Source of the DNA: Deltaproteobacteria bacterium
GTDB taxonomy: Bacteria; Desulfobacterota; RBG-13-43-22
Length of the DNA: 64,000 bases
Assembly (NCBI GenBank): GCA_016219225.1
Contig: JACRBX010000202.1
Location: forward strand, 741 to 64,740
Reading direction: 5' to 3'
The notes beneath the pieces are model-generated. The model worked only from the letters and a program-made list of their open reading frames with translations, ran no database searches and had not been told where the DNA came from. Of this stretch, positions 13,291-55,189 are shown piece after piece. Positions within the stretch are counted from its first letter, which is position 1, and each line of letters begins with the position of its first letter. Made by a program: the position numbers and the translations under genes.

Positions 13291-14778
13291 GTGGTTACAG
13301 TTGAAAATAACATAGATGATAAACAAGGCTTGCTCCCGCCCCGGGAAAGGATCCAAAAACTATTGGATCCCGGAAGCTTCTTCGAACTGGACAGGTTGGC
13401 CACCCACCATTACCGGGAATTCGGAATGGATAAAAGAGAGATTCCGGCCGATGGCGTGATTACGGGCTTCGGACGGATCAACGGAAGGAAAGTCGCGGTT
13501 TATGCGCAGGATTTTTTGGCCCTGGGCGGCACCTATGGGGAGATGCATGGAAAGAAAATCTGCGCCCTCATGGATACGGCGGCCGAAGCCGGGGCGCCGG
13601 TCATCGGCATCTGTCACTCCGGTGGACTCCGACTTCATGAAACATTAGGTCCCATGGAGATGTTCGGCCAGCTTTTTAAAAGAAACAGCCTCTATTCCGG
13701 TCTGATCCCTCAGATTTCTGTTATTCTGGGGGTGGTGGCCGGAGGTCAGGCCTATTCCCCGGGTCTTACGGACTTTATCCTTATGACCAAAGGTAGCGCC
13801 ATTTATATTGCCGGGCCGGCTTTTGTCAAGGCTCAGACCGGCAGGGAGATCAGCGATGAAGAGCTGGGGGGGGCGGTGATGCACTCCAGGGTGAGTGGTG
13901 TGGTGGATGTTTTGGGAGATACCGAAGAAGAAGTCCTGCAGCAAACCAGAAACCTTTTGGATTTTCTGCCCCTGAATTGCCAGGACCCCACGCCGTACTT
14001 CCCGAATGATGACGACCCGGAGCGGTGTGAGGATGTCTTGAACCGGATCGTCCCGGAAGCATCCCATCGGCCCTTTGATATGAAGAAGGTTATAGGCCCG
14101 ATCTTCGACCAACAGACCTTCATGGAAATGAAGCCCGATTTTGCCCGGAACATGATCACCGGTTTTTCCCGGCTGGCCGGACAGAGCGTCGGCATCGTGG
14201 CCAATCAACCGAACCATCTGGGAGGGGTGATTGATATTAAGGCGGCTGAAAAGGCGGCCCGTTTCGTTCGATTCTGCGATGCCTTCAATATTCCGATCAT
14301 CACCTTTCAGGATTCTCCGGCTTATCTGATCGGCAAGGAAATGGAACAGGGGGGCATGATTTATAAAGGGGCCAAATTGCTTCACGCCTATGCCGAGGCC
14401 ACGGTTCCCAAAATAACCATCATCGTCCGGAAAGCCTATGCCGGGGCCTATATCGCCATGGGCAGCCAGTATATCGGGGCGGATTTCGTCTATGCCTGGC
14501 CGGGGGCGGAGATCTCCAGCGTGGCCCCCAAAACGGCGGCCAGCATATTGTTCCGAAAGGAACTGGCCGAGGCCGGGGCGAATGAACAAAGAGTTGAGGC
14601 CCTTTACCGGGATTATTATGACCGCTATGTCAATCCCTTGCGGGCGGCGTCTTTGCGGCACATTAATGATATTATCGAGCCGAAAACAACCCGGCCGATC
14701 TTGATCAAATCCCTTAATTGGCTTTCAGGGAAAAAACAACCCAGGCTTCCCAAAAAACATGGTAATATTCCATTGTAA
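13291..14778 (+). CDS. Acyl-CoA carboxylase carboxyltransferase subunit (propionyl-CoA carboxylase beta / methylmalonyl-CoA decarboxylase alpha family)
   Basis: Two crotonase-like carboxyltransferase halves. No biotin carboxylase, BCCP or Na-pump subunit is present in the window. GTG start with an AGGAG RBS. Confidence 0.85.
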   Translation: MVTVENNIDDKQGLLPPRERIQKLLDPGSFFELDRLATHHYREFGMDKREIPADGVITGFGRINGRKVAVYAQDFLALGGTYGEMHGKKICALMDTAAEAGAPVIGICHSGGLRLHETLGPMEMFGQLFKRNSLYSGLIPQISVILGVVAGGQAYSPGLTDFILMTKGSAIYIAGPAFVKAQTGREISDEELGGAVMHSRVSGVVDVLGDTEEEVLQQTRNLLDFLPLNCQDPTPYFPNDDDPERCEDVLNRIVPEASHRPFDMKKVIGPIFDQQTFMEMKPDFARNMITGFSRLAGQSVGIVANQPNHLGGVIDIKAAEKAARFVRFCDAFNIPIITFQDSPAYLIGKEMEQGGMIYKGAKLLHAYAEATVPKITIIVRKAYAGAYIAMGSQYIGADFVYAWPGAEISSVAPKTAASILFRKELAEAGANEQRVEALYRDYYDRYVNPLRAASLRHINDIIEPKTTRPILIKSLNWLSGKKQPRLPKKHGNIPL

Positions 14779-14784
14779 GAGGGG

Positions 14785-14819
14785 GTACGCGTTACGGGTT
14801 ACGAGTTGGTAGTTCAAAG
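14785..14819. repeat. Short repeat family K (gtacgcgttacgggttacgagtt..gttcaaag)
   Basis: An inverted copy lies at 58749..58783. Confidence 0.7.
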
Positions 14820-14845
14820 TTCGATCTATTGAGCTTTGATCTCCT

Positions 14846-14942
14846 GTAGGGTGGGTGTAACGAAGTGAAACCCACCAATAAAAAAATGAAGTGAACCCCA
14901 TCAGGTTTATTGGTGGGTTCCGTTTCACTCCACCCACCCTAC
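14846..14942. repeat. Long imperfect hairpin element: two 12-bp stems (gtagggtgggtg/cacccaccctac and cccaccaataaa/tttattggtggg) with an internal loop
   Basis: Seen directly, about 70 nt after the carboxyltransferase stop. Could act as a terminator or be a REP-like structured element. Confidence 0.65.
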
Positions 14943-14949
14943 AAGCTTT

Positions 14950-15023
14950 CTCGCTAAGTCATTCCCGTTTTCACGGAAATGACGGAGAAGTTGTCGATGT
15001 GTTTTCAAAAAGCTAAACTGATA
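14950..15023. repeat. Solo REP-like unit (gtcattcccgttttcacggaaatgacggagaag) plus a conserved tail ttgtcg..ttttcaaaaagctaaactga
   Basis: The same tail (gacggagcgattgtcggcgctttttgaaaaagctaaactga) follows the REP pair at the window end (63959..64000). Confidence 0.7.
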
Positions 15024-15074
15024 CCAAATATTTTATGATTATTGTATGTTAGGTTTCTAAGGAGAGAATAAAAA

Positions 15075-16238
15075 ATGTACTATCCACTAAGTGACGAAGT
15101 TCAGGCCCTCCGTGCAATGGCACGGAAATTTGCCAGGGCGGAAATTCTGCCCCGGGTGGCTGAAGATGAAAAGAATCATTCCTTCCAAAAGGACATCATT
15201 ACTAAAATGGGGGAATTGGGTTTTTTTGGATGCCCTTTGCCGGAAGAATACGGCGGATCTAATTTGGGTTTTTTGGCCCATGCGGTCGTAACCGAAGAGA
15301 TCGCCAGGGTCAGCGGGTCCATACGGGCCGCCTTTAATATGCAGACCATGGGCACGGCCCGGGAAATCTTCCAATTCGGAACAGAGTTCCAAAAGGAAAA
15401 ATATATATCCAGGCTGGTCAAGGCCGAAATCCTGGGGTGTATCGGTATCACCGAACCCAACGCCGGCTCGGACGTGGGCGGGATAAAGACCAAAGCTGTC
15501 AAAAAAGGCAATACCTATATTTTAACGGGTTCCAAAAACTGGATCACCTACGCCCAGGTGGCCGATGTGGGGATTATCTATGCCTATACCGATCCATCCA
15601 GGAAATATAAGGGACTCTCCGCTCTGATCGTGGAAATGAAATCCAAGGGGGTCAGCACTGGTCCCACGGCGGAAAAAATGGGTTGGATGGCCTGCCCCAC
15701 CGGGGAGATCTTTTTTGATGAAGTCGAGGTTCCGGCCGAAAACCTGTTGGGCGGACTGGAAGGAAAAGGCTTTGAGTGCGTCATGGCCGGGCTGGACAAT
15801 ACCCGGCTGACGGCTGCCGCCGGGGCCGTCGGGGTGAGCCAGGGCCTGATTGATGAGGCGGTAAAATATGCCCGGGAAAGAGAACAATTCGGCAACGCTA
15901 TAGGAAAATTCCAGATGGTTCAGGAAGAGCTGGCCCGGATGATCGTGGAAACGGAAGCGGCCCGGTTGATGACCTACAGTTGCGCCCAGGAAAAGGATGG
16001 GGGAAATACTCATAATACCTTAGAGACAAGCATGGCCAAATACTTCGCCTGCGACGTGGCCTCCAGGGTGGCTGACGGCGCTCTCCGGATCTTGGGAGCC
16101 TATGGCTATTCCAGCGAATATGCCGTGGAAAGGCTCTTCCGAGATGCCAAACTCTACCAGATCTTAGAGGGATCGGCCAATATTCAGAAGATGATCATCG
16201 CCACCGATGCCCTGGGATACCGGAAGGCCAACCATTAA
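15075..16238 (+). CDS. Acyl-CoA dehydrogenase
   Basis: Typical ACAD architecture, including the C-terminal REQFGNAIGKFQMVQEELARM motif. AAGGAGAG RBS. Confidence 0.9.
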   Translation: MYYPLSDEVQALRAMARKFARAEILPRVAEDEKNHSFQKDIITKMGELGFFGCPLPEEYGGSNLGFLAHAVVTEEIARVSGSIRAAFNMQTMGTAREIFQFGTEFQKEKYISRLVKAEILGCIGITEPNAGSDVGGIKTKAVKKGNTYILTGSKNWITYAQVADVGIIYAYTDPSRKYKGLSALIVEMKSKGVSTGPTAEKMGWMACPTGEIFFDEVEVPAENLLGGLEGKGFECVMAGLDNTRLTAAAGAVGVSQGLIDEAVKYAREREQFGNAIGKFQMVQEELARMIVETEAARLMTYSCAQEKDGGNTHNTLETSMAKYFACDVASRVADGALRILGAYGYSSEYAVERLFRDAKLYQILEGSANIQKMIIATDALGYRKANH

Positions 16239-16246
16239 AAAATTGT

Positions 16247-16275
16247 TTGACAGGATAAAAAATGATTTATATGTA
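16247..16275 (+). promoter_or_regulatory. Candidate promoter: TTGACAGGAT -35 box followed by an A/T-rich stretch with TATATG/TATGTA -10 candidates, 85-110 nt upstream of the hydratase gene
   Basis: The same TTGACAGGA word is tandemly repeated at 28582..28614. Confidence 0.35.
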
Positions 16276-16357
16276 TTTTCCAGATGATCCTGTAAATCCT
16301 GTCTAATAATGTTGTTGAATTTCAAGATCCTAAAAAGATACGGAAGGAGCTATATTC

Positions 16358-17134
16358 ATGAATGAAAATCCAATCTTACTCGATGTGAATCAAGGCGTAG
16401 CCAGGATCACCTTGAACCTTCCGGAGGTCCGGAACGCCTTGAGTCTAGAGGTTCGGATGACCATGGCCGAAATGTTTATGAAACTGGGTGAGGATGAGGC
16501 GGTGAAGGCTATCATTCTTACCGGGTCCGGAAAGGCCTTTTCCTCCGGCGGGGATATTCGGACCATGGAAGGGGTCAATCCGGTGGCCGGCCGTCTGCGG
16601 CTGAAAAAAGGCCATATCCTGATAAAGACCATGTTGGGACTGGAGAAGCCGATCATCGGGGCTATTAATGGGGTGGCGGCCGGGGCCGGGGTCAGCGTCG
16701 CCCTGGCCTGTGATTTTATAATAGCCTCGGAAGAGGCCCGTTTTGCTGTGAGTTTCAGCAAGATAGGACTGGTGCCTGATCTGGGCCTTTTTTACCTCCT
16801 GCCTTTAAGGATCGGGGTTCCCAGGGCCAAGGAACTGATGTTTTTCGGAGACGTTATAGATCCTCACCAGGCCGAAAGCCTGGGAATGGTCAACCGGGTG
16901 GTGCCGGCGGAAAAACTGGAAGAAGAGGCCCGGGCCATGGCCCAACGTTTGGTGCAGGGCCCAGGTCAATCCTATGCCATGATCAAGTCCGCCCTGAACC
17001 ACTGGCCGGCCGATCTGGATACCTTTTTGGAGATGGAATCGACCATGCAGGCCGTAGCTTTCAACAGCCGGGATTTCGATGAAGGGCGAAGGGCCTTTTT
17101 AGAGAAGAGGAGCCCGGTTTTTTGCGGTAAATAA
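16358..17134 (+). CDS. Enoyl-CoA hydratase/isomerase (crotonase fold)
   Basis: ILTGSGKAFSSGGDI and GAINGVAAGAGVSVALACDF oxyanion-hole motifs. Confidence 0.9.
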   Translation: MNENPILLDVNQGVARITLNLPEVRNALSLEVRMTMAEMFMKLGEDEAVKAIILTGSGKAFSSGGDIRTMEGVNPVAGRLRLKKGHILIKTMLGLEKPIIGAINGVAAGAGVSVALACDFIIASEEARFAVSFSKIGLVPDLGLFYLLPLRIGVPRAKELMFFGDVIDPHQAESLGMVNRVVPAEKLEEEARAMAQRLVQGPGQSYAMIKSALNHWPADLDTFLEMESTMQAVAFNSRDFDEGRRAFLEKRSPVFCGK

Positions 17135-17138
17135 AAGG

Positions 17139-17156
17139 GGCCTTGAGGCCTTTATT
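17139..17156 (+). terminator. Weak intrinsic terminator candidate (GGCC-ttga-GGCC followed by TTTATT)
   Basis: Short GC stem followed by a T-tract, 5 nt after the hydratase stop. Confidence 0.35.
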
Positions 17157-17269
17157 GAAGTTCAAAAACCTGTCCTGTCAATATTTCTTCAACCCCTCTG
17201 ATACCGTTATAAATAACCCCCCCGACCAAGCCGGGGGGATTCTGAATTTAGTTTAAAGTTAAAAAAAAC

Positions 17270-17326
17270 TTGACAAAAGATTAATAATAAATTAAACCAG
17301 TCGTCAGTCGACAGTCTACTAAAAAA
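17270..17326 (+). promoter_or_regulatory. TTGACA -35-like box plus operator-like motif tcgtCAGTCGACAGTCTAC (17301-17319) and an aaaaaag tail, upstream of the second GntR gene
   Basis: The 19-nt core matches the motif at 431-449 with a single Y difference. The aaaaaag tail recurs with one inserted t. Confidence 0.5.
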
Positions 17327-17338
17327 GGACCTATAAAC

Positions 17339-18022
17339 GTGCCCCCTTTAAATAAAAAAAGAGCATTCAGCCCCCAATTTTCCCTCCCTCTGGTGGAACA
17401 GATCACGGAATTTTTGACCCATGCCATTGTGGATGGTCAATTCGAAATGGGGGGGCGGCTGGTTGAAAATGAGCTTCAACGGCAATTCGGGGTCAGCCGC
17501 TCGCCGATCCGGGAATCTTTCCGCATCCTGGAAAAAAAGGGTCTGGTCACCAGCATTCCCAGGAAGGGGACGTACGTCCGGAAGATTGTCCAGAAGGACA
17601 TCGAGGAGAACTTTCCGGTCAGGGCCAATCTGGAAAGCCTGGCCGCCCGCTTAGCCCTTCCCCATCTCACCCCAGAGGATATTGAAAAAATGGAAACCGC
17701 CTTTACCAGGATGGGAGAGGCAGCCCAAAATAATAATTTTAAATCCTATCTCAAGTATCACAGCGAGTACCATGATGTCTTTATAAGGGCCAGTCGAAAC
17801 GATACCCTGATAGAGATCCTGGACAACCTGAGAAATCAGGCCATCTGGTTCAGGTATTCCTATCTTTATGTTCAGGAATCATTTGAATATGCCATCCAGG
17901 TTCATCGAAAGATTTTAGACTGCTTTATAAAAAAGGATGCCGACCGCCTGGAGGCCCTGGTTAAGGAGCATATCCTGATCGCCCTGGAGCGGTTTATTCA
18001 GTTTTTAAACTCTCAGAAATAA
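17339..18022 (+). CDS. GntR-family transcriptional regulator, FadR subfamily (FCD domain)
   Basis: LQRQFGVSRSPIRESFRILEKKGLV HTH. GTG start with an AAAAGGA RBS. Confidence 0.85.
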   Translation: MPPLNKKRAFSPQFSLPLVEQITEFLTHAIVDGQFEMGGRLVENELQRQFGVSRSPIRESFRILEKKGLVTSIPRKGTYVRKIVQKDIEENFPVRANLESLAARLALPHLTPEDIEKMETAFTRMGEAAQNNNFKSYLKYHSEYHDVFIRASRNDTLIEILDNLRNQAIWFRYSYLYVQESFEYAIQVHRKILDCFIKKDADRLEALVKEHILIALERFIQFLNSQK

Positions 18023-18037
18023 AAAGAAAGGATAGGT

Positions 18038-19486
18038 ATGGGTAAGATCGGAATCCAATTATGCGGCAGTTATTTGCCCAAGTATAGAATAGATCGAAAT
18101 CTTATCGCAGCCAGTTGGGGCCGCTCCTCCCTGGGTGGGGAACGAACCGTGGCCAATAATGACGAAGATGCCATTACCCTGGCGGTCGAGGCGGCCCGCA
18201 ATTGCCTGCATGGCGACAGCCTGGAAAAAATTGACGGACTATTTTTTGCTACCACCAGCGCTCCCTATAAAGAAAAGATGAATTCGGCGGTTATGGCCTC
18301 GGCCCTGGATCTGAACCGGGAACTGGTGACGGCCGATTTCGGTTATTCCTTACGAGCAGGCACCGGGGCCTTGAAAGCAGCCTTGGATTCAGTCCGGTGC
18401 GGTTCGGCCCGAAGAGCTTTGGTCACTGCTGCCGACTGTCGACTGGGCTACCCCAGGTCGGACCAGGAGCAGAGTTTCGGGGACGGGGCGGCGGCTGTCT
18501 TAATCGGAGACCAAGATCTTCTGGCAACCCTTGAGGGGGAATACTCGATCTGTAATGAAATGCATGATGTCTGGAGAAATCCGGAAGATACCTTTGTCCG
18601 CACCTGGGAAAGCCGCTTTATCCTGGGTGAGGGTTATACCAATACCATGAGCGAAGTCGTCCGGGGGATTTTAAAAAAATATGGGCTGGAACCGAAGGAC
18701 ATCACCAGGGCCGTTTTCCCGGCCCCGGACCCAAGGACCCTTCAGGGGTTGGCCAAAAAATTGGGGTTTGATATGAAAACCCAGGTCCAGGACCCTTTGA
18801 TTTCCTCCATAGGCTATTGTGGGGCGGCCCAAGCCTTACTGATGCTGGTGGCTGCTTTGGAAGAAGCCGAACCGGGAGATTTACTGCTGCTGGCCAATTA
18901 TGCCGATGGCGCCGACGCCCTGCTTTTCAGGGCGACCGGGGAAATCGGCCAAAGGAGCAGCCAACGGAAATTGCAAACACTCCTGGAGCAAAAGTTAATG
19001 CTCTCTTCCTATGCCCGTTTCTTAAGTTATAAGGGACTGATCGAGACCCTTCCCGGGGAACCCTTTCGCCTGTTTCCATCGGCCACGGCAACCTGGCGGG
19101 AAGCCGGCAGCATCCTCAGGGGACATGGCAGCCGCTGCCAGGCCTGCGGCAAGACGACTTTTCCGATTCAACGGATTTGCTACCATTGCCAATCAAAGGA
19201 TCAATTCGTAGAAGTACCCATTTCCAATTATCAGGGGGAAGTTTTTACCTTTTCATTAGATAACCTGGCCGGCCGGAGCGACGACCCGGTGGTGATCCAG
19301 ACCATTGCCGATCTGGGGGAAGAGAAAGTCCGCTTTTACGGCATGATGACCGACTGTAATCCGTCGGTAGTCCAGATAGGGATGCCGGTGGAACTGACCT
19401 TTCGAAGGATTTATGACGGCATGGGCATACATAACTATTTTTGGAAATTGCGGCCGGTGAACAAGGAGGACGTGACCAATGGGTAG
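18038..19486 (+). CDS. HMG-CoA-synthase/FabH-fold protein fused to a C-terminal DUF35 (Zn-ribbon plus OB-fold) domain. The nucleophilic Cys is apparently replaced.
   Basis: Conserved FGDGAAAVLIG and GTES-like ATTSAPYKEK motifs. The position aligning to the HMGCS NACYGGT Cys reads SLRAGTG. C-terminal CQACGKTTF...CYHCQS zinc ribbon. Confidence 0.8.
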   Translation: MGKIGIQLCGSYLPKYRIDRNLIAASWGRSSLGGERTVANNDEDAITLAVEAARNCLHGDSLEKIDGLFFATTSAPYKEKMNSAVMASALDLNRELVTADFGYSLRAGTGALKAALDSVRCGSARRALVTAADCRLGYPRSDQEQSFGDGAAAVLIGDQDLLATLEGEYSICNEMHDVWRNPEDTFVRTWESRFILGEGYTNTMSEVVRGILKKYGLEPKDITRAVFPAPDPRTLQGLAKKLGFDMKTQVQDPLISSIGYCGAAQALLMLVAALEEAEPGDLLLLANYADGADALLFRATGEIGQRSSQRKLQTLLEQKLMLSSYARFLSYKGLIETLPGEPFRLFPSATATWREAGSILRGHGSRCQACGKTTFPIQRICYHCQSKDQFVEVPISNYQGEVFTFSLDNLAGRSDDPVVIQTIADLGEEKVRFYGMMTDCNPSVVQIGMPVELTFRRIYDGMGIHNYFWKLRPVNKEDVTNG

Positions 19487-20666
19487 CATAAAAGATAAAG
19501 TGGCCATTATCGGTATGGGCTGCTCCAAGTTCGGGGAGCGGTGGGATATGGGGGCTGTGGATTTGGCCATCGAGGCGGTGTACGAGGCTTACGGCGATGC
19601 CGGCATAGAGGCCAAGGACCTGGAGGCCTGTTGGCTTTCCACCTTGATGGCCCCGGTCATCGGTGTTTCCGGTTCCCTGGCCGCCGATGGATTGAAGCTG
19701 GGGAACATCCCGGTTATCCGCAATGAAAACTGGTGTACCTCCGGACACATCGCCCTTCTGGAGGCCTGTATGGCCGTGGCCAGCGGGGCCTATGATCTGG
19801 TCATGGCCTTGGGCGTGGAGAAACTGAAAGATACGGGATTTCCCGGACTGGGTACGGGGAGGGGGATGCATCCGGTTTATGAGGCCCGCCGGACTTCTCC
19901 CGGTTCTTTTGGGTTGATTGCCGAGCGCTATTTCAAGACCTATGGAATACCCATGGAAGAGGGCAAGATAACCATGGCCAAGATCGAAGTCAAAAATCAC
20001 GATAACGGCAGTCTCTGCCCCAAGGCCCATTTCAGAAACCAGATCACCGTGGATACAGTGCTTAAGGCCCCCATCATCGCCTGGCCATTAGGACTTTTTG
20101 ATTGTTGCGGAAACAGCGACGGAGCGGCCTGTGCCATCATTACCACCCCTGAAAAGGCCAGGTCCTTCCGGGCCGATCCGATTTACCTCAAAGGCTTCGG
20201 TATCTCGACCGATGCCATGATTCCTCATTTCAGGCCCGATTTCAGTTGGACCAGTTTTAATGCCCTGGTCAACTCATCCCGGAAGGCCTATGAAATGGCC
20301 GGGATCAAAAATCCCCGGGAAGAACTCAGTCTGGCCGAGGTCCACGACTGCTTTTCCATTACCGAGTTGCTGATCTATGAAGATTTCGGCTTCAGTCCCA
20401 GGGGCAGGGCCAAAGAGGACGTGGACTCCGGGTTTTTTACCCGCCAGGGGGGATTGCCGGTTAATGTCGACGGCGGGTTGAAGTGTTTCGGACATCCGGT
20501 CGGGGCCAGCGGATTGCGCATGACCTATGAGGTCTATAAACAATTACAGGGCAAGGCGGATCTGCCTGAACGGCAGATCAAGAACCCCAGGCTGGGTCTG
20601 GCCCATACCTTCGGCGGACCGCCCCAGATTAGCGCCGTGGCCATTTTGGGGAATGAAAGAGGATGA
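19479..20666 (+). CDS. SCP-x/archaeal-type thiolase (nucleophilic Cys present in NWCTSG)
   Basis: VAIIGMGCSKFGE N-terminus and a GHPVGASGLRM motif. Start overlaps the upstream gene by 8 nt, consistent with a thiolase/HMGCS-like/DUF35 complex. Confidence 0.85.
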   Translation: MGSIKDKVAIIGMGCSKFGERWDMGAVDLAIEAVYEAYGDAGIEAKDLEACWLSTLMAPVIGVSGSLAADGLKLGNIPVIRNENWCTSGHIALLEACMAVASGAYDLVMALGVEKLKDTGFPGLGTGRGMHPVYEARRTSPGSFGLIAERYFKTYGIPMEEGKITMAKIEVKNHDNGSLCPKAHFRNQITVDTVLKAPIIAWPLGLFDCCGNSDGAACAIITTPEKARSFRADPIYLKGFGISTDAMIPHFRPDFSWTSFNALVNSSRKAYEMAGIKNPREELSLAEVHDCFSITELLIYEDFGFSPRGRAKEDVDSGFFTRQGGLPVNVDGGLKCFGHPVGASGLRMTYEVYKQLQGKADLPERQIKNPRLGLAHTFGGPPQISAVAILGNERG

Positions 20667-20674
20667 AAAAAACA

Positions 20675-20817
20675 GGCTATGGGCAATAGGCGATAGGCAA
20701 TAGGCGAGCGGGAATAAGGGTTAACAGCACAAGATATCCGGTAGGTGGGTTTTCGTTAAACCTAAAACCTTCGATCCCCCGTCCCTGCCCATAGCCTATA
20801 GCCCATTGCCTCTTGCC
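20675..20817. repeat. Inverted pair of tandem short-period repeats (ggctatgggcaataggcgataggcaataggcg ... gcccatagcctatagcccattgcc) flanking about 65 nt. Potential long stem-loop.
   Basis: Seen directly. A related ctatagcc tandem repeat lies at 50991..51033. Confidence 0.7.
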
Positions 20818-20845
20818 AAATACCTATTTCAGGAGGAAAACTTAG

Positions 20846-21988
20846 ATGGATTTTGAAATAAGCGAAGAGAATCGGATGTTCCGGGAGGCCATCCGGGAAT
20901 TTGCCGAAAGAGAGATCGTCCCTTTGGTAGATGAAGCCGAGGCGACACACACTTTTCCCATACAACTCTTTAAGAAAATGGGCGAACAGGCTTTTTTATG
21001 CCCCCGGTATCCCCTGGAGATGGGAGGGGGCGGCGGAGATAAGATCACCGAATGCATCATGGTGGAAGAGCTCTGCCGCATCGATGTGGGTATTGCCGGC
21101 AGCCTGATGGTCCAGAGTGGCTTGGCAACGGCCCCGATTTTCCGTTTCGGGTCCGAGGAACAAAAAGAGCGCTTTCTTTTGCCGGCCATTCGGGGGGAAA
21201 AGATCGGGGCTTTCGGGCTGACCGAACCGGATGTGGGCTCAGACGCTGCGGCCATAAAAACCAAAGCGGTCAAGGATGGCAATGACTATATCATCAACGG
21301 GACCAAGATGTTTATCACCAACGGGCCTATCTGTGATTACGTGATCGTGGCCGCCTATACCGATCCTACCCGGAGGGGGGAAGGGATCAACCTGTTTATC
21401 GTCGAAAAAGGCACCCCGGGATTTCTGGTTTCCCGCAAGCTGGACAAAGTGGGCAACTGCTCTGCCGAGACCGGAGAACTGGTCTTTGAGGATTGCCGGG
21501 TGTCGGCCAAAAACATGATCGGAGAAAAAGAAGGGGGCGGCTTTGCCCAGTTGGCCGATACCCTGATCTCGGGCCGCATCACTTACGGGGCCCGCTGTAC
21601 CGGCACCGGGCAGGCCGCTTACGAATTAACGGCCAAATATGCCAAAGAGCGCATCCAATTCGGAAAACCGATCGGAAAATACCAGATCAACCGTTTCCGC
21701 ATTGCCGAAATGGCCATGTATCTGGATATCATGCGCAGCTATACCTATCGGGTGGCCTGGATGTACGACCAGGGGAAGAAGGTCCGCAAAGAGTCCTCCA
21801 TGGTTAAATTGTTCACCGCTGAAATTCTCCAGAAGATCCTGGCCGATGCTATGCAGATCCATGGGGGCTACGGCTATATGATGGAGTACCCCATTCAGCG
21901 TTTCTGGCGGGACGGACGGCTCTTTACCGTCACGGAAGGCACTTCCGAGATTCAGCATCTGGTTATTGCCAATGAGTTGGGGTTGTAA
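20846..21988 (+). CDS. Acyl-CoA dehydrogenase
   Basis: ACAD domains with a C-terminal RIQFGKPIGKYQ motif. AGGAGG RBS. Confidence 0.9.
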   Translation: MDFEISEENRMFREAIREFAEREIVPLVDEAEATHTFPIQLFKKMGEQAFLCPRYPLEMGGGGGDKITECIMVEELCRIDVGIAGSLMVQSGLATAPIFRFGSEEQKERFLLPAIRGEKIGAFGLTEPDVGSDAAAIKTKAVKDGNDYIINGTKMFITNGPICDYVIVAAYTDPTRRGEGINLFIVEKGTPGFLVSRKLDKVGNCSAETGELVFEDCRVSAKNMIGEKEGGGFAQLADTLISGRITYGARCTGTGQAAYELTAKYAKERIQFGKPIGKYQINRFRIAEMAMYLDIMRSYTYRVAWMYDQGKKVRKESSMVKLFTAEILQKILADAMQIHGGYGYMMEYPIQRFWRDGRLFTVTEGTSEIQHLVIANELGL

Positions 21989-22000
21989 GGGATGAAATAA

Positions 22001-22031
22001 AGTTTGGAGTTCGGTGTTCGGAGTTCGGAGT
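22001..22031. repeat. Family C tandem repeat (agttcgga 8-mers)
   Basis: Other copies at 38196, 45041, 50548, 52384, 52535 (inverted) and 61233/61271. Confidence 0.75.
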
Positions 22032-22088
22032 AAAAACTGAAAAGTAATCAACATTATTTTAGAACTAAACCAAAGGAGGATCAAAGAA

Positions 22089-23297
22089 ATGAAAGAAGCA
22101 AAGCATTGTATGAAAAGCAGCCTGGGCATTTTTTGTTTATGTTTCTTCATCGGAATTTTCTTTCTGACCCCGCTGGTCTGTTCTGCGGCCGAAAAAGTCC
22201 TTAAGATCGGGGCGATTTTCCCGTTGTCCGGGAAAGGGGCGGTCTGGGGTATTGCCGCCCAGAGGGCTATAACCATTGTCCAGAAGGAGATTAATGGCCG
22301 GGGTGGTTTGAATGTGGCTGGTGATAAATACCGTTTGGAGATTATTTGGGAGGACGATAAGTTTAATGCCGCCACCGGCCGGATGGCTGCAGAAAAACTG
22401 GTCAACCGGGACGGGGTGAAATTTATCCTGGGTTCTCAATCTTCCGCGGTCCTGTTGGCCGTTCAGCCCATTACGGAGCCCAAAAAAATTCTTTTTTTCC
22501 TCAATTCCTTTGCCAAAGAGGTCCTGTCTCCGGATAAACCCTACAGCTACCGCATGGTCCTGACCTCCAATGAGATCCTGCCGGCCATGTATCCCTGGCT
22601 GGTCAAAAATTATCCGAAAGCAAAGACCGTGGCCTTTATCGAGCCCAATGATGCCAGCGGCTGGTCGGTGGAGAAGGACTGCCGACGGAACGCCGAAAAG
22701 AACAATCTCAAAATCGTCTTCTCCCAATTTTATGAACGGGGGACCTCGGATTTCTATCCCCTCCTGAATAAACTCATCCTCCAGAATCCGGATGTCATCG
22801 ACTTTACCGGTGCCCCTCCTGGTGATCAGGCCCTGATCGTCAAACAGGCCCGGGAGTTGGGTTTCAAAGGCAAGACCTTTGCGGCGACGACCATCGACCC
22901 GCCAGAATTCTGCAAGATCGCCGGGACTCAGAATGCCGAAGGCCATATCAGCAATACCCATGATCTGTTGGGGGCCTTTAATACGGAAGCCCAAAAAAAG
23001 TATGTTGAGGATTACCTGGCCCAGTTTGGAAAACCATTCGATCCGGTAACGCCCAAGTATACCCTCTACCTGGAGATCCTGGCCCAGGCCATTGAAAAAG
23101 CCGGAAGTCTGGATACGACCAAGGTGAAAGAGATACTGGATAAGACGGAGGAATGGAATTCAATTTATGGGAAGGCCCGATTCGGGGGCAAGGAATACTA
23201 CGGGATCAAACACCAGATCGTCACCCCGGTCTATATCTCCGAACTGATTAACGGGAAATTGGTCAACCGGGGCACCATGATGCCGGTCATTCATTAA
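22089..23297 (+). CDS. ABC transporter substrate-binding protein, LivK/type-I PBP family
   Basis: Signal peptide followed by KIGAIFPLSGKGAVWG...EINGRGG. AAGGAGG RBS. Followed by permease and ATPase genes. Confidence 0.9.
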   Translation: MKEAKHCMKSSLGIFCLCFFIGIFFLTPLVCSAAEKVLKIGAIFPLSGKGAVWGIAAQRAITIVQKEINGRGGLNVAGDKYRLEIIWEDDKFNAATGRMAAEKLVNRDGVKFILGSQSSAVLLAVQPITEPKKILFFLNSFAKEVLSPDKPYSYRMVLTSNEILPAMYPWLVKNYPKAKTVAFIEPNDASGWSVEKDCRRNAEKNNLKIVFSQFYERGTSDFYPLLNKLILQNPDVIDFTGAPPGDQALIVKQARELGFKGKTFAATTIDPPEFCKIAGTQNAEGHISNTHDLLGAFNTEAQKKYVEDYLAQFGKPFDPVTPKYTLYLEILAQAIEKAGSLDTTKVKEILDKTEEWNSIYGKARFGGKEYYGIKHQIVTPVYISELINGKLVNRGTMMPVIH

Positions 23298-23307: not shown

Positions 23308-24165
23308 ATGAGTTTCCCATTTTTTATACAGGTCCTGGTCAACGGGCTGATGCTGGGGCTGACCTATGCCTTAATTGCTTCCGGCTTCAGCCTGATCTAT
23401 GGCATCATGCGGCTGTTAAACTTTGCCCATGGCGATTTTTATATGTTAGGGGCCTTCGCCACCTACCTCCTGTGTGAACGGTTAGGGATGGATTATTTTT
23501 CAGCCCTGTTGCTGAGCATGGTCCTGGTTGCCCTTCTGGGAGTCATCACCTATCATTTCTTCTTCCGGCCCTTCCGGGATCAACACGACCCCAGTGTGGT
23601 CATCGCCCTGGGCGTGGCCATGTTGATCGGCGGCCTGGCTCCTCTGGTCTTCGGAGAGAAGGACCAGTCCGTAACGCCGGTCTTTTCAGGGGTTGTCCGG
23701 TTTTTAGGGGCCACCCTTTCCCTGGAGAGGATCTTTGTCATTGCCATGGCCATTGTCCTGATGATCGCTTTAACCTTGTTTATTAAATTCACCAAAATGG
23801 GACAATCCATGCGGGCCGTGGCCCAGGATCAGGAAGCGGCCGCCCTCCAGGGCATCGGGGTCAATTCCACCTTCATGATGTGCATGGCCATCAGTTCCGC
23901 CCTGGCCGGGGCCGCCGGGTCCCTGCTGGCCCCCCTTTTTGTGGTCAATCCTTTCATCGGCACCCATGCCGTGCTCAAGGCCCTGGTTGTGGTGGTCATC
24001 GGCGGGATGGGCAGCATCCCCGGAGCGATTGCCGGGGGTCTTCTCTTGGGATTTGTAGAAAGTATCGGGAACACCTTTTTAGGCGGGGTAACGGAGATCC
24101 TGGGCTTTGTGATCGTTATGCTGGTCCTGATCTTTAAGCCCCAGGGACTGTTCGGCCATGGGTAA
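23308..24165 (+). CDS. ABC transporter permease, LivH-like
   Basis: Polytopic membrane protein with a C-terminal LGFVESIG signature. Confidence 0.9.
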   Translation: MSFPFFIQVLVNGLMLGLTYALIASGFSLIYGIMRLLNFAHGDFYMLGAFATYLLCERLGMDYFSALLLSMVLVALLGVITYHFFFRPFRDQHDPSVVIALGVAMLIGGLAPLVFGEKDQSVTPVFSGVVRFLGATLSLERIFVIAMAIVLMIALTLFIKFTKMGQSMRAVAQDQEAAALQGIGVNSTFMMCMAISSALAGAAGSLLAPLFVVNPFIGTHAVLKALVVVVIGGMGSIPGAIAGGLLLGFVESIGNTFLGGVTEILGFVIVMLVLIFKPQGLFGHG

Positions 24166-25099
24166 GCGCAAATTGGGGTATCTGATTTTATTCATTCTCC
24201 TGGCGGCTTTTCCGATCTTCAACCAGGATCCTTTTATATTACACATCCTGATTACCACCGGGATCTGGGCGACTTCCGTCTGGGGGGTCAGACTGATCAT
24301 GTCCACCGGACAGTTGACCCTGGGACATGCCGCCTATATGGCCGTAGGGGCCTATGCCTCGGCTCTATTGGTCATGAAGGCCGGGTTTTCCTTCTGGCTG
24401 GCCCTGCCGCTGGCCGGCCTGATCGCGGCCCTGGTGGCGCTTTTGATCGGCTATCCGACCTTGCGTATCAAAGGGGTTTATTTTGCCATCATCACCTTTG
24501 CCTTTGCCGAGATCGTCCGCTTGATCATCGTCAACTGGCCCGGTTTTTTAGGGGGGTCCGGCGGGATTCCCGGTATCCCCTCTCCCTCCCCTTTTTTTTC
24601 CATCCCTTTCAGCGGCCGGGTCCCTTTCTACTATCTGATTTTATTTATATCACTAGTGACCTTTCTGGTCATGAGGGGTATTGATAAAAGCCGGATCGGA
24701 AAAATTTTTTCAGCCATTCACGAAAGCGACGATCTGTCCCAATCCTTTGGTATCAATATAATGAAATACAAACTGATTGCCTTCTGTCTGGGCTGTTTTT
24801 TCGCCGGGTTGAGTGGAAGTTTTTACGTCCATTACTATAATTTTGCCAGTCCGGAGTTTTTTACCATCTGGCAATCCGTTTATTGCCTCCTTTTTGTCAT
24901 CGTCGGAGGGGTCGGCGGTGTTTTCGGACCCCTTTTGGGCTCATTTTTTATGACCCTGGTGCCTGAATTTTTACGGGAAACCAAGGAATATGAACCGGTG
25001 ATTTACGCCGTTATTCTGATCCTGGTCATGTTTTTGCTGCCCGGAGGATTGATTACGCTGCCGGCGCGGTTGGGAAGAAAAAAAGGCCACAAAGAATGA
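24158..25099 (+). CDS. ABC transporter permease, LivM-like
   Basis: Hydrophobic protein that overlaps the upstream permease gene. Confidence 0.9.
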   Translation: MGKRKLGYLILFILLAAFPIFNQDPFILHILITTGIWATSVWGVRLIMSTGQLTLGHAAYMAVGAYASALLVMKAGFSFWLALPLAGLIAALVALLIGYPTLRIKGVYFAIITFAFAEIVRLIIVNWPGFLGGSGGIPGIPSPSPFFSIPFSGRVPFYYLILFISLVTFLVMRGIDKSRIGKIFSAIHESDDLSQSFGINIMKYKLIAFCLGCFFAGLSGSFYVHYYNFASPEFFTIWQSVYCLLFVIVGGVGGVFGPLLGSFFMTLVPEFLRETKEYEPVIYAVILILVMFLLPGGLITLPARLGRKKGHKE

Positions 25100-25100
25100 A

Positions 25101-25232
25101 AATATCGAATAACGAATAATGAATGTCGAAGGAAATAAAAGCGAGGTTCAATGTTCAACGTTGAACCTTAAACCGAAACCTTGAGTCTTTGTTACTTCAT
25201 GATTCGAAATTCGGTGTTCGATATTCGATATT
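25101..25232. repeat. Family D unit (aatatcgaataacgaataatgaatgtcgaag) and its inverted copy (cttcatgattcgaaattcggtgttcgatattcgatattcg) flanking a central perfect palindrome ggttcaatgttcaacgttgaacc (25145-25167)
   Basis: Seen directly. MITE-like architecture. Confidence 0.75.
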
Positions 25233-25262
25233 CGTATTTTTGATCCAAGGATTCAAAAATCG

Positions 25263-26027
25263 ATGCTCTTAACTATCGAAAATGTAACCAAAAACTTCGG
25301 CGGGCTGGCGGCCCTTTGGAATTTGAGTTTCCAGGTTAATGAAGGGGAAATCCTTGGGCTGCTGGGACCCAATGGTTCGGGCAAGACTACGCTTTTTAAT
25401 GTGGTCAGCGGATTTTTTTCCCCTTCGGCCGGCCGGGTCTTTTTTAATGGCCGGGATATTACCGGATTTCGGCCCAACAAGATCGCCCAATTCGGTTTGG
25501 TACGCACCTTTCAAGGAACCAATCTATTCAAGAACCGGACGGTTTGGGAAAATGTGGTTATTGCCCACCACCTGATGATCAAGGCCAATTTCCTGGAACT
25601 TCTTCTAAACCAAGTGCGGGCCAAAACAAGTGAAGCAGCCGTCGAGAGGCACAGCAAGGAAATCCTGGAGTATCTGGGCCTTTTAGCCGTCAGGGAAGAT
25701 CTGGCCCATAATCTGCCCCATGGCCTTCAGCGGGCCTTGGGGGTGGCCATTGCCCTGGCGGCCCAGCCCCGGTTGCTGCTGCTGGACGAGCCTCTGACCG
25801 GAATGAACCCGGAGGAGTCCCGAAGGTTTATCGATTTGATTCGGGGTCTGCGGGACAGGGGGATCACCCTGATGATCGTGGAACACGATATGAAGGCCAT
25901 CATGGGTGTCAGTGACCGGATAGTCGTCCTTAATTATGGACAAAAGATCGCTGAAGGTCCTCCCCAGGAGATCCAACGGGACCCCAAGGTAATTGAGGCC
26001 TATCTGGGAAGCGAGGTTCCGGTATGA
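25263..26027 (+). CDS. ABC transporter ATP-binding protein, LivG-like
   Basis: Walker A GPNGSGKTT and an LLLDEP signature. Confidence 0.9.
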   Translation: MLLTIENVTKNFGGLAALWNLSFQVNEGEILGLLGPNGSGKTTLFNVVSGFFSPSAGRVFFNGRDITGFRPNKIAQFGLVRTFQGTNLFKNRTVWENVVIAHHLMIKANFLELLLNQVRAKTSEAAVERHSKEILEYLGLLAVREDLAHNLPHGLQRALGVAIALAAQPRLLLLDEPLTGMNPEESRRFIDLIRGLRDRGITLMIVEHDMKAIMGVSDRIVVLNYGQKIAEGPPQEIQRDPKVIEAYLGSEVPV

Positions 26028-26743
26028 CCCAACTATCCTGGTTTTCTTTGCAGAACCTGAAGGTTTCTTACGGAGCCGCCCCGGCCCTGAAGGGAATCTC
26101 CTTACAAGTCGAGACTGGGAATATCGTTACCCTCATCGGGTCGAATGGCGCCGGAAAAAGCACGACCTTACGGGCTATATCCGGATTGGTCCCCCTGGCA
26201 GAAGGGGAGATTTTTTTTGAAGGAAAAAAGATTCATGGTCTTTCTCCACAGGAAATTGTCCATCGCGGAATCGCCCATGTCCCTGAAGGCAGAAGGGTCT
26301 TCCCGTTCATGACCGTTCTCGAAAATCTGAAAATGGGGGCTTTTCGCCGCAAGGATAAGAAAGAGATCCGGATGGACCTGGAAAAGCTCTTTGAGCACTT
26401 TCCGGTTTTGCGGGACAGACAGGCTCAAAGGGCCGGGAGTCTCAGTGGAGGAGAACAACAGATGCTGGCCATTGGCCGGGCCTTGATGTCCCAACCGCGG
26501 TTACTCCTTTTAGATGAACCTTCCATGGGTTTGGCTCCCATAATGGTCCAGGAATTAAGCCGGATAATCATCGAGATCAACCAGAGGAATGTGGGTATCA
26601 TCATCGTTGAGCAAAATGCCCAAATGGCCCTGCGCCTGGCCCATCAGGCCTATGTGTTGGAAACGGGATCGGTTGTTTTGGAAGGAAAGGCTTCGGACCT
26701 GATCCATGATGAACACATCCGAAAGGCGTATTTGGGGGGATGA
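26024..26743 (+). CDS. ABC transporter ATP-binding protein, LivF-like
   Basis: GSNGAGKST and an LSGGEQQMLAIGRAL signature. Confidence 0.9.
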   Translation: MTQLSWFSLQNLKVSYGAAPALKGISLQVETGNIVTLIGSNGAGKSTTLRAISGLVPLAEGEIFFEGKKIHGLSPQEIVHRGIAHVPEGRRVFPFMTVLENLKMGAFRRKDKKEIRMDLEKLFEHFPVLRDRQAQRAGSLSGGEQQMLAIGRALMSQPRLLLLDEPSMGLAPIMVQELSRIIIEINQRNVGIIIVEQNAQMALRLAHQAYVLETGSVVLEGKASDLIHDEHIRKAYLGG

Positions 26744-26831: not shown

Positions 26832-28028
26832 ATGAGAAAAGTCGGCATTGTGGGGATGGGGACCACCAAGTTCAAGGCCCGCTGGGTGGACAAGACCTAT
26901 TATGAGCTGGCCTTCGATGCGGCCAGGATGGCCATGGAGGATGCCGGACTCAGTCGGCTGGATATCGATTGTGCCGTCTACGGGATCTACAACGATTTGT
27001 TTCAGCGTCAATACCAGCCTGACGCCTTTGTCCACGATTATCTGGGACTGGGCTTAAAGCCCATGGTGCGGGTCAATTCCGGCGGGGCCACCGGCGGGGC
27101 GGCCCTGCGCATCGGCTACGCCGAGGTGGCCAGCGGCCTCTATGACATCTGTCTGGTCCTGGGGGTGGAAAAATGCGCCGATTGCTACAACTATGAATTT
27201 CAGTCCGCCACCCCGGAGGTCCTGCGGGCCATCCTCTATACGGCTGACATGACTTATGACAACCCGGCCGGCCGCACCGCCGCCTCGGGCTTTGCACTGG
27301 CGGTCATCGCCCACCGGGAAAAATACGGCAACCCCACCGATGAACAGATGGCCAAGGTCTCGGTGAAGAATCATTTCAATGCCACCAAGAATCCCATTGC
27401 CCAATCGCCCAAGGTCCTGACGGTGGAGGAGGTCTTGAATTCCAAAAAGATCGTCGAGCCTTTCCGGTTTTATGACAATTGCCTCTATACCGAAGGGTCT
27501 TCGGCGGTCATCCTGGCCTCCGAGGAAGTTGCCCGGAAAATAAGCCCCAAACCGGTCTGGATTACCGGAGTGGGGGCTTCCACCGACTATGTCATACCCG
27601 GAAACCGGCCCAACATCCATACCTTCGAATCTTCCCGGCTGGCGGCTCAAAAGGCTTACGGCATGGCCGGCCTTACCCACCCCCTGGAAGATTTGGATTT
27701 AGCGGAACTGCATGACGCCTTTACCGGTACCGAGATTATGGCCTATGAAGACTGCTTTTTTTGTGAAGAAGGGCAGGGGGGACGGTTGATCGATGAAGGG
27801 GTGGTCATGGCCGGAGGAAAATTGCCGGTCAACCTGAGCGGCGGTTTGATCGGCTGCGGCCATGCCGTAGGGGCCACAGGCATCATGCAGACTTATGAAG
27901 TAGCCCTGCAATTGCGGGGAGAGGCCGGAGAACGGCAGGTCGAAAATGCCCGCCGCGGATTGGTGCAAAGTATCGGCGGGACCCTTTGCACCTGGACGGT
28001 TTGTCTGGTTTTGGAAAGGGAGGGCTGA
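26832..28028 (+). CDS. Thiolase-fold protein lacking the nucleophilic Cys (VNSGGATG where the paralogs have NWCTSG or NFCATA). Candidate Ltp2-like retro-aldolase.
   Basis: SCP-x-like VGIVGMGTTKFK N-terminus, with the GHAVGATG His motif retained. Followed 2 nt later by a stand-alone DUF35 gene. Confidence 0.8.
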   Translation: MRKVGIVGMGTTKFKARWVDKTYYELAFDAARMAMEDAGLSRLDIDCAVYGIYNDLFQRQYQPDAFVHDYLGLGLKPMVRVNSGGATGGAALRIGYAEVASGLYDICLVLGVEKCADCYNYEFQSATPEVLRAILYTADMTYDNPAGRTAASGFALAVIAHREKYGNPTDEQMAKVSVKNHFNATKNPIAQSPKVLTVEEVLNSKKIVEPFRFYDNCLYTEGSSAVILASEEVARKISPKPVWITGVGASTDYVIPGNRPNIHTFESSRLAAQKAYGMAGLTHPLEDLDLAELHDAFTGTEIMAYEDCFFCEEGQGGRLIDEGVVMAGGKLPVNLSGGLIGCGHAVGATGIMQTYEVALQLRGEAGERQVENARRGLVQSIGGTLCTWTVCLVLEREG

Positions 28029-28030
28029 TC

Positions 28031-28576
28031 ATGAACGAGCAGGAACGGGAAAAATGGTATGCTTTTGAGCATCAAAAATATGGCATCCCCATTGAATATC
28101 TGAAGCGGGAATTTGAAAAAGAGTTGTCAGGCCAAGTCCCTATGGACCAACCCCTGGAGATACCTGACAAGATGGAGGTCATCTATAAGTACAGTTACGG
28201 CCAACAATCCCGGTTTTTCAGGGAACTGCGGGAAAACAAGAAAATTTACGGGGCCAAATGCCCCCAATGCAGCAAGGTCTACTGCCCTCCCAGGGCCCAT
28301 TGTTCCCTGTGCTATCAGCCTACCGAATGGGTGCCTTTGACCGGGACCGGGGTGATCAAGACCTTTACGGTCCAGTATATCTCCACCAGTGCCTTTATTA
28401 AAAAAGTTCCCTTTGTCTGCGCCTATGTGCAATTAGATGGAACCGATTTTCTGCTCATGGCCAATATGGAAGTGGAAGATGTGGCCCGGATCAGGGTGGG
28501 GACAAAAGTCAAGGCCGTCTTTCGTGAAGAACGGCAGGGGACCATCACGGATTTTTATTTTGAACCGTACGAATAA
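28031..28576 (+). CDS. DUF35 protein (rubredoxin-like Zn ribbon plus OB-fold), partner of the thiolase-fold protein
   Basis: CPQCSKVYCPPRAHCSLC zinc ribbon. Size (about 180 aa) and thiolase-adjacent position match BbsA and the ChsH2-DUF35 domain. Confidence 0.8.
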   Translation: MNEQEREKWYAFEHQKYGIPIEYLKREFEKELSGQVPMDQPLEIPDKMEVIYKYSYGQQSRFFRELRENKKIYGAKCPQCSKVYCPPRAHCSLCYQPTEWVPLTGTGVIKTFTVQYISTSAFIKKVPFVCAYVQLDGTDFLLMANMEVEDVARIRVGTKVKAVFREERQGTITDFYFEPYE

Positions 28577-34204: not shown

Positions 34205-34350
34205 GATCTGATACGATTGAAGGAAGAAAAGGCAATTTGAAGGGCAGCACCTTTGAAATTCATGAATTCAGGAGTCAGAAGCCAAAATTCAGAATGAGGA
34301 TCAATTCTTAAGAATCGACATTCATTACAGATATGGAGGGAAAAACAATG

Positions 34351-35805: not shown

Positions 35806-35806
35806 A

Positions 35807-55185: not shown

Positions 55186-55189
55186 AAAA

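Follow-up and report, generated by a model that had tools for sequence, protein, structure and literature searches.

Two gene pairs in a 64,000-nucleotide stretch of a Deltaproteobacteria genome (contig JACRBX010000202.1; henceforth the window) encode a thiolase next to a protein that joins the fold of 3-hydroxy-3-methylglutaryl-CoA (HMG-CoA) synthase (HMGS) to a DUF35 domain, and the closest described systems are complexes of these same three parts. In the Methanothermococcus thermolithotrophicus thiolase/HMGS/DUF35 complex (PDB 6ESQ), the HMGS is active, with the tetrad E82/C114/H238/N270, and channels acetoacetyl-CoA to mevalonate synthesis; an archaeal tetrad mutant makes no HMG-CoA (PMC12960953). 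In PhlACB and MucABC (PDB 5M3K/5MG5, 9SKH, 9VBO/9VBT), a tetrad-less, non-catalytic HMGS-like partner works with a Cys-containing thiolase-like subunit and a separate DUF35 protein, all encoded in polyketide synthase (PKS) or nonribosomal peptide synthetase (NRPS) clusters, and the thiolase-like subunit acylates small molecules; PhlC and MucB no longer have the HDxF motif, the PhlA-type tetrad positions read C/G/Q/D, MucB without its partners is insoluble and inactive, and an interfacial CoA chamber is kept in the archaeal, Phl, and Muc complexes alike (PMC12960953). That an HMGS-like subunit can be non-catalytic has been known since 2017, when the structure of PhlACB was released. The benzoylsuccinyl-CoA thiolase BbsAB (7PXP) and other thiolase/DUF35 pairs couple a degradative SCP2-type thiolase to a Zn-ribbon/OB partner in anaerobic beta-oxidation-like pathways, and the aldolases Ltp2 and Sal, also DUF35-associated, have no nucleophile Cys and carry YDHF or YDCY (PMC12329534).

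Liao et al. (Nat Commun 2026, PMC12960953; January 2026) purified an ACAT/HMGS-DUF35 complex from Pseudomonas fluorescens (the Pf complex) that lacks the E-C-H-N tetrad, while its thiolase keeps Cys, HDxF, and GHx. The complex cleaves acetoacetyl-CoA but forms neither HMG-CoA nor, by condensation, acetoacetyl-CoA, and a mutant in the His of the thiolase HDxF motif is nearly dead; 1,001 of 1,030 bacterial loci were left without a role, and the Pf complex was called an 'evolutionary intermediate' without a pathway (PMC12960953). The original prediction for the window, made from sequence, held that both gene pairs reproduce the archaeal complex with an HMGS-like protein that lacks the catalytic Cys, a non-catalytic scaffold or CoA-binding subunit recruited to a thiolase. 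That reading is right, but it is not new, as a tetrad-less HMGS-DUF35 fusion with an active SCP2 thiolase had already been described experimentally (PMC12960953), and the window pairs do not overturn current understanding.

Like the Pf complex, the window pairs combine an HMGS-DUF35 fusion, loss of the tetrad, an adjacent thiolase with Cys, HDxF, and GHx, and neighbors other than PKS or NRPS genes, and by analogy they would be thiolytic rather than HMG-CoA-forming; unlike it, they belong to an uncultured anaerobic Thermodesulfobacteriota and form two paralogous modules in one catabolic island, and, unlike an 'intermediate' without a pathway, they and 80 related loci described below lie in beta-oxidation-type operons. 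With 6ESQ they share all three parts, the fold, and the thiolase Cys and HDCF, but the tetrad is gone, the DUF35 domain is fused, and the context is catabolic. They resemble PhlACB and MucABC in the tetrad-less HMGS-like partner, the Cys-containing thiolase, and the presence of DUF35, and differ from them in thiolase motif, DUF35 fusion, and gene neighborhood. BbsAB is likewise degradative, but its stand-alone DUF35 subunit has no HMGS-like domain, and Ltp2 and Sal, for their part, have neither the nucleophile Cys nor the HDCF motif found in both window thiolases.

Both gene pairs exist as originally described, and all four genes are on the + strand. Module 1 comprises W1 (18038-19486, 482 amino acids; open reading frame (ORF) list, Pfam, and NCBIfam), an HMGS-like pseudoenzyme fused to DUF35, and T1 (19479-20666, 395 amino acids; NF004810, 6esq_A, and motifs), an SCP2-type 3-oxoacyl-CoA thiolase. 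Module 2 comprises W2 (34348-35805, 485 amino acids from its probable start; ORF, Pfam, NCBIfam, and alignment), a second HMGS-like/DUF35 fusion, and T2 (35807-37012, 401 amino acids; NF004810 and motifs), a second SCP2-type thiolase. The W2 ORF spans 34333-35805 and so reaches upstream of that start, which is probably the ATG at 34348 because close homologs are 485 amino acids long; the start first given, 34351, is one codon off. W1 and W2 are 38% identical, T1 and T2 51%. Reading of the sequence across the module 1 junction (19463-19486) finds the T1 ATG (19479) overlapping the end of W1, with its TAG stop at 19484-19486, by 8 nt (ATGGGTAG); at the module 2 junction (35791-35809), the TAA stop of W2 (35803-35805) is separated from the T2 ATG (35807) by a 1-nt spacer (TAA-A-ATG), and the predicted overlap therefore holds for module 1 only. 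In both modules an AAGGAGG Shine-Dalgarno sequence (19463-19469 and 35791-35797) lies inside the 3' end of the upstream gene, 9 nt 5' of the thiolase ATG. The proposed co-translation is thus supported in the form of translational coupling, but codons do not prove the complex formation that was read from them.

Profile searches place an HMGS fold and DUF35 in one polypeptide in both W1 and W2 (Pfam and NCBIfam), as had been anticipated. Archaeal HMG-CoA synthase models match residues ~3-340 without reaching their curated cut-offs (NF003274, 210 bits for W1 and 211 for W2 against 244; TIGR00748, 159 and 158 against 353), and the C-termini match zf-ChsH2 and OB_ChsH2_C, which together make up DUF35; the BbsA model scores 26 bits on the W1 C-terminus, short of its cut-off of 250. 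W1 thus divides into an HMGS-fold domain (amino acids 1-335, nt 18038-19042; domain matches and model), a flexible linker (amino acids ~338-343), a 4-Cys zinc ribbon (amino acids 364-387, nt 19127-19198), and an OB fold (amino acids 393-473, nt 19214-19456), all on the + strand. Among solved structures the best matches to W1 are 6esq_I, the HMGS chain (4.7e-36), and, for its DUF35 part, 6esq_E (3.9e-13), with PhlA and MucA next after 6esq_I; T1 matches the thiolase chain 6esq_A at 8.6e-58, so that each of the three parts finds its best solved relative in a different chain of 6ESQ, which bears out the claimed likeness to the archaeal complex. An AlphaFold2 model of W1 built from a 41-sequence alignment (predicted local distance difference test score 91.3, predicted template modeling score 0.92) superposes its N-domain on 6esq_I with a template modeling score of 0.92 and a root-mean-square deviation of 1.4 Å over 348 columns (Foldseek), and structural neighbors of the model rank 6esq_I ahead of PhlA and MucA, and these ahead of active HMGS and FabH enzymes.

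The catalytic tetrad is absent from both proteins. We rebuilt the 6esq_I numbering from the phmmer alignment, which reproduces the literature tetrad E82/C114/H238/N270 and runs gap-free against W1 from residue ~36 to residue ~157. The nucleophile Cys114 (EFACKAGT) stands opposite Leu105 of W1 (YSLRAGT; codon 18350-18352, + strand) and a Leu of W2 (GGLKAGT), and the catalytic Glu82 opposite Thr73 of W1 (codon 18254-18256, + strand). In a MAFFT alignment that includes 270 homologs, the E82, C114, H238, and N270 columns read Thr, Leu, Pro, and Tyr in W1 and Thr, Leu, Asp, and His in W2. The Cys column can be considered reliably aligned because the W1 model superposes closely on 6esq_I, and neither alignment nor model puts a nucleophile at the active-site position. 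The original prediction was therefore correct in reading a residue other than Cys there, within the motifs SLRAGTG and GGLKAGTT, but mistaken in counting a 'GTES-like' landmark as retained, since Thr replaces the catalytic Glu82 in both proteins. The other supposed landmark, FGDGAAA, is a loop generic to the KAS III/thiolase superfamily and not specific to HMGS.

Loss of the tetrad extends across the family. An exhaustive HMMER scan of 50%-identity clusters returned 3,284 matches at E ≤ 0.001 and 605 at E ≤ 1e-30, the latter count possibly taking in unfused HMGS relatives, and family columns were scored in 137 full-length cluster representatives. The nucleophile column holds Cys in none of the 137, Leu in 97 (71%), Thr in 10, and other residues in fewer; the Glu82 column is Thr in 85%. 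Loss of the Cys is no chance event but a fixed feature of a large family. In the same set, conservation of the four zinc-ribbon cysteines is 99%, and several residues of the HMGS-like domain are both nearly invariant and specific to the family (Arg135 96%, Asp149 92%, Arg106 91%, and the Thr73 just mentioned). No Cys that might substitute for the nucleophile is conserved family-wide in the HMGS-like domain of the 137 representatives, the best case being the C56 column (65%), at which W2 carries Ser. One candidate, Cys261 of W1 (GYCGAA, beside the Asn270 position), is present in 115 of 120 close relatives but in only 10% of the representatives, and was rejected.

The partner thiolases, on the other hand, are intact, and the predicted pairing with a Cys-containing thiolase is confirmed. 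T1 and T2 exceed the NF004810 cut-off of 403 (515 and 658 bits) and match Thiolase_C_1 (1e-34 and 2e-27); both are far from the BbsB cut-off of 750 (132 and 129 bits). Motif alignment identifies in T1 the nucleophile Cys86 (NWCTSG; nt 19734-19736), His289-Asp-Cys291-Phe (nt 20343-20354), and Gly-His339-Pro (residues 338-340, nt 20490-20498), and in T2 Cys88 (NFCAT), HDCF (296-299), and GHP (345-347), all on the + strand. The Cys of the HDCF motif is the acid/base in SCP2 thiolases (PMC12329534).

A genome scan with one genome per species confirmed 358 loci, of which the best 80 were analyzed. In these, i) the HMGS-like gene precedes the thiolase gene on the same strand in 80 of 80; ii) the stop-to-start distance is -20 to +21 nt in 54 of the 70 loci that could be scored, while nine, all from metagenome-assembled genomes (MAGs) of Dehalococcoidia or Chloroflexi, have a 908-nt gap with a match resembling enoyl-CoA hydratase (ECH) between the two genes; iii) the partner thiolases keep the Cys in 80/80, HDxF in 76/77, and GHx in 75/75; and iv) mean identity to the window proteins is 58% for the HMGS-like domain (range 52-98%), 63% for DUF35, and 76% for the thiolase, the divergence of the partners being correlated (r = 0.86-0.89). 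Since identities are retained and correlated in this way, the dead domain, although evolving faster, is clearly still under selection and inherited together with the thiolase.

We consider it likely that each module is a two-protein degradative thiolase in a CoA-dependent catabolic island, W1 and W2 serving as non-catalytic structural subunits. The predicted pairing of a non-catalytic HMGS-fold/DUF35 subunit with an SCP-x thiolase is upheld by the family-wide loss of the tetrad, the kept thiolase residues, and the invariant gene order; architecture, fold, and synteny are direct observations, while the physical complex, the thiolytic direction, and the scaffold role are inferred from homology and published experiments (PMC12960953). 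T1 and T2 would be the sole catalysts, converting 3-oxoacyl-CoA and CoA to acetyl-CoA and a shortened acyl-CoA by means of the nucleophilic Cys (Cys86 in T1), the His-Asp-Cys-Phe motif with its Cys as acid/base, and the Gly-His-Pro motif. W1 and W2 would be pseudoenzymes, most likely obligate structural partners that stabilize or solubilize the thiolase; they could also contribute to a CoA-binding cleft shared across the interface, and a CoA-binding role of the kind first suggested is possible by analogy with the CoA site that is shared in 6ESQ. The fused DUF35 domain would clamp W to the thiolase, as the separate DUF35 protein does in 6ESQ, PhlACB, and MucABC, and translational coupling of the two genes would favor their equal synthesis. 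The modules probably serve beta-oxidation-like breakdown of imported organic acids, because the island around them is full of CoA ligases, CoA-transferases, dehydrogenases, hydratases, and ABC importers.

This island extends from ~465 to ~50,500 (465-50537), roughly 50 kb, and its cassettes are highly repeated. It holds seven family III CoA-transferases, none at an equivalog cut-off and with best matches of the dicarboxylate type, together with five or six AMP-forming ligases, four acyl-CoA dehydrogenases, a crotonase, a MaoC dehydratase, a BKACE, two GntR regulators, and four Liv-type ABC importers. Upstream of module 1 on the + strand lie a GcdA/MmdA-type carboxyltransferase (13291-14778; TIGR01117 615 bits, cut-off of 999 not reached), a non-decarboxylating glutaryl-CoA dehydrogenase Acd of the Desulfococcus type (15075-16238; NF045552 479 bits against 470), an enoyl-CoA hydratase (16358-17134), and a GntR regulator (17339-18022); downstream on the same strand are an acyl-CoA dehydrogenase (20846-21988) and a Liv-type ABC binding protein (22089-23297), both scanned, and presumed ABC permeases and ATPases (23308-26743) recognized from translations and from scanned paralogs elsewhere in the window. 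Module 2 is preceded, again on the + strand, by an AMP-forming acyl-CoA ligase (29728-31263), a MaoC dehydratase (31272-31724), and two family III CoA-transferases (31850-33046 and 33047-34204), and followed by an acyl-CoA dehydrogenase (37028-38167, scanned) and a second Liv-type ABC transporter (38409-43189), of which the binding protein (38409-39575) and a permease (40661-41710) were scanned and the remaining genes are assigned by their order and, for 39646-40506, by translation. No PKS or NRPS gene and no mevalonate gene was found among the 44 window ORFs scanned with Pfam or NCBIfam, a few ABC ORFs and 55175-55990 (no Pfam hit) being left unclassified. In a promoter/terminator scan of 14700-22200, the counts did not depart from those of shuffled sequence (9 against 6.5±2.7; 12 against 10.5±3.1) and do not inform on operon limits.

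The best related locus, in the uncultured Thermodesulfobacteriota MAG CAZVHO01, is 98% identical with the same gene order; the pair is also carried by Desulfobacteraceae, Syntrophobacteraceae, Desulfatiglandaceae, and Desulfarculaceae and by many Dehalococcoidia MAGs. Counted as clustered ORFs over the 80 loci, the neighbors of the pair are enoyl-CoA hydratase (44), 3-hydroxyacyl-CoA dehydrogenase (HADH; 27), acyl-CoA dehydrogenase (22), AMP ligase (13), and class I CoA-transferase subunits (13 and 9). The large subunit of a B12-dependent acyl-CoA mutase (PF01642, 2e-217) occurs in 23 of the 80 (for example L012:2261-3925 and L027) and MeaB in 7, which suggests that the thiolase of some lineages acts in a pathway that rearranges the carbon skeleton; unlike these loci, the window has no B12-dependent mutase. 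Cultured degraders, too, carry full-length homologs with 32-35% identity on their catabolic megaplasmids (Sphingobium, Novosphingobium sp. ES2-1, Rhodococcus sp. DK17, Azoarcus sp. KH32C, and Variovorax), and in the three such loci inspected (Novosphingobium, Rhodococcus DK17, and Azoarcus) the tetrad is lost, the partner thiolase is intact, and the neighbors are of the beta-oxidation type. Full-length fusions also occur in a Candidatus Helarchaeota (Asgard) MAG (P0211) and in an 'uncultured archaeon' MAG (L019); unless these archaeal records are binning errors, the dead-HMGS fusion may extend beyond bacteria. Literature searches for this fused family in anaerobes returned nothing specific: an apparent match in Price et al. 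proved to be a prefix artefact (DUF3584), and the thiolase of the Desulfotomaculum acetone cluster is accompanied by just a stand-alone DUF35.

Several points weigh against the reading of each module as a degradative thiolase with a structural W subunit. Complex formation and activity are argued from homology, and the 80/80 synteny, the coupling signals, and the correlated divergence bear only indirectly on a stable complex of W and T. Relatedness to the Pf proteins is read from shared architecture, not from sequence identity. The nearly invariant residues of the HMGS-like domain could mean that its pocket has a role beyond scaffolding. The window yielded no HADH gene, which leaves the local beta-oxidation set incomplete. 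As to substrate, the GcdA/MmdA-type carboxyltransferase and Acd beside module 1 hint at glutaryl/glutaconyl-CoA metabolism, and module 1 may, as a weak guess, cleave a 3-oxo-dicarboxylyl-CoA, for example 3-oxopimeloyl-CoA to glutaryl-CoA and acetyl-CoA; the guess is drawn from that neighborhood, and the Acd/GcdA association recurs in only a minority of related loci.

In a refinement that would leave the degradative thiolase in place, the remodeled HMGS-like pocket has kept the ability to bind CoA, an effector, or the acyl or distal-carboxylate portion of the substrate, and thereby determines how specific the thiolase is or how it is regulated. The near-invariance of Arg135, Asp149, Arg106, Thr73, and the Leu at the Cys column, all specific to the family, the 52-98% identity that the domain keeps across the 80 loci, and the interfacial CoA chamber of the archaeal, Phl, and Muc complexes (PMC12960953) speak for such a pocket; the same residues may, however, be just structural or interfacial, and the literature treats PhlA and MucA as non-catalytic, so that we regard the refinement as a possibility on the doubtful side. 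A bolder version would make the pair, far from being a leftover of evolution, the standard dedicated thiolase for beta-oxidation of non-standard (dicarboxylic, branched, or alicyclic) acyl-CoAs in anaerobic Thermodesulfobacteriota and Dehalococcoidia, with a remodeled HMGS pocket (the invariant Arg and Asp) binding part of the substrate or CoA and setting specificity, and would make module 1 the missing thiolase for 3-oxopimeloyl-CoA or a related 3-oxo-dicarboxylyl-CoA, feeding glutaryl-CoA dehydrogenase in the lower anaerobic aromatic/alicyclic pathway; taken as a whole we think this unlikely.

Thiolases are reversible, and it is conceivable that the pairs run in the condensing direction, in reverse beta-oxidation or in fatty-acid synthesis independent of acyl carrier protein, with DUF35 docking downstream enzymes. 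KT/DUF35 drives Claisen condensation in archaea (Sulfolobus acidocaldarius; bioRxiv 10.1101/2024.07.05.601840), and one homolog of the fusion comes from the Helarchaeota MAG. Yet the context is catabolic, with importers, CoA ligases and transferases, FAD acyl-CoA dehydrogenases, and GntR regulators; neither an enoyl-CoA reductase nor a ketoacyl-CoA reductase was seen beside the gene pairs; and the Pf complex did not condense acetyl-CoA (PMC12960953). A condensing role is accordingly quite improbable.

Two further activities merit still less credence. A Friedel-Crafts C-acyltransferase like PhlACB or MucABC, with a small-molecule acceptor, is brought to mind by the tetrad-less PhlA and MucA, the second- and third-best structural relatives of W1, but is scarcely compatible with T1 and T2 keeping the HDCF lost in PhlC and MucB, with the lack of PKS or NRPS genes nearby, with a DUF35 that is fused rather than separate, or with tetrad substitutions that differ (C/G/Q/D in the PhlA type, T/L/P/Y in W1). 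Retro-aldol cleavage of 3-hydroxyacyl-CoA by T1 and T2, in the manner of Ltp2 or Sal with DUF35, would explain why no HADH gene was found in the window, and DUF35-associated aldolases do exist (PMC12329534); the Cys and HDCF of T1 and T2, unlike the residues of Ltp2 and Sal, and the HADH genes that accompany the pair in 27 of the 80 related loci nevertheless make it very improbable. Least credible of all is that W1 and W2 are genuine HMG-CoA synthases using a different nucleophile and feeding a mevalonate or HMG-CoA pathway, as the JGI and NCBI source annotations and a best NCBIfam match to an HMGS model might suggest: scores fall below the cut-offs (210 against 244; 159 against 353), non-catalytic residues stand at all four tetrad positions in an alignment that is free of gaps and backed by structure, there is no alternative conserved Cys and no mevalonate gene in the window, and neither the archaeal tetrad mutant nor the Pf complex makes HMG-CoA (PMC12960953). 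On scores and tetrad alike, W1 and W2 are almost certainly not bona fide HMG-CoA synthases.

Other features of the island deserve mention in their own right. An SCP2-thiolase-fold protein (26832-28028, + strand), separated by 2 nt from a downstream stand-alone DUF35 protein (28031-28576, + strand), is without both catalytic cysteines, with Gly at the nucleophile ('NSGGATGG') and HDAF for HDCF, but keeps the His, Asp, and Phe as well as GHA; the Cys losses are common to 118 of 118 homologs of at least 65% identity, and the motifs fit neither active SCP2 thiolases nor the YDHF/YDCY aldolases Ltp2 and Sal. Just 3' of this pair is the beta-keto acid cleavage enzyme BKACE (28839-29678, + strand; PF05853, 6e-103, below all NCBIfam equivalog cut-offs), an unusual neighbor for a thiolase-like protein. 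At the end of the island is an odd pair on the + strand, a short AMP-binding-like protein (46982-48187) with a partial AMP-binding domain and AMP-binding_C_2, overlapped by 4 nt by a protein (48184-49284) with an LplA-B_cat lipoate/biotin-ligase domain (2e-17). The side-by-side occurrence of a fused pair and a thiolase-like/DUF35 pair recurs on plasmid p3 of Novosphingobium sp. ES2-1 (recorded source, activated sludge), where one cluster (L081, 4963-15365) reads ACAD-SDR-fusion-thiolase-ECH-ECH-hypothetical-Ltp-DUF35-P450-TetR-FadD3; the FadD3-family ligase and P450 neighbors would fit a steroid-type substrate.

Four points go beyond what was known: the size of the fused family together with the universal loss of the Cys among its representatives, its dominance in genomes of uncultured sulfate reducers and Dehalococcoidia, its strict synteny and consistent beta-oxidation context, which argue against the view of an intermediate without a pathway, and its widespread mis-annotation. 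Source annotations of the homologs (JGI and NCBI) read 'hydroxymethylglutaryl-CoA synthase', and thousands of family proteins carry the 'HMG-CoA synthase' label in JGI and NCBI records; such labels can create false calls of a mevalonate pathway or of ketogenesis in metabolic reconstructions of sulfate reducers and Dehalococcoidia, and a test of the tetrad, with Thr and Leu at the E82 and C114 positions, would provide a simple annotation filter. We wish to stress that a large syntenic family, under purifying selection and situated in beta-oxidation-type operons of both anaerobes and aerobic degraders, argues for an established catabolic function, and that the family offers a clear case of a pseudoenzyme, a catalytically dead paralog kept as the obligate partner of an active enzyme.

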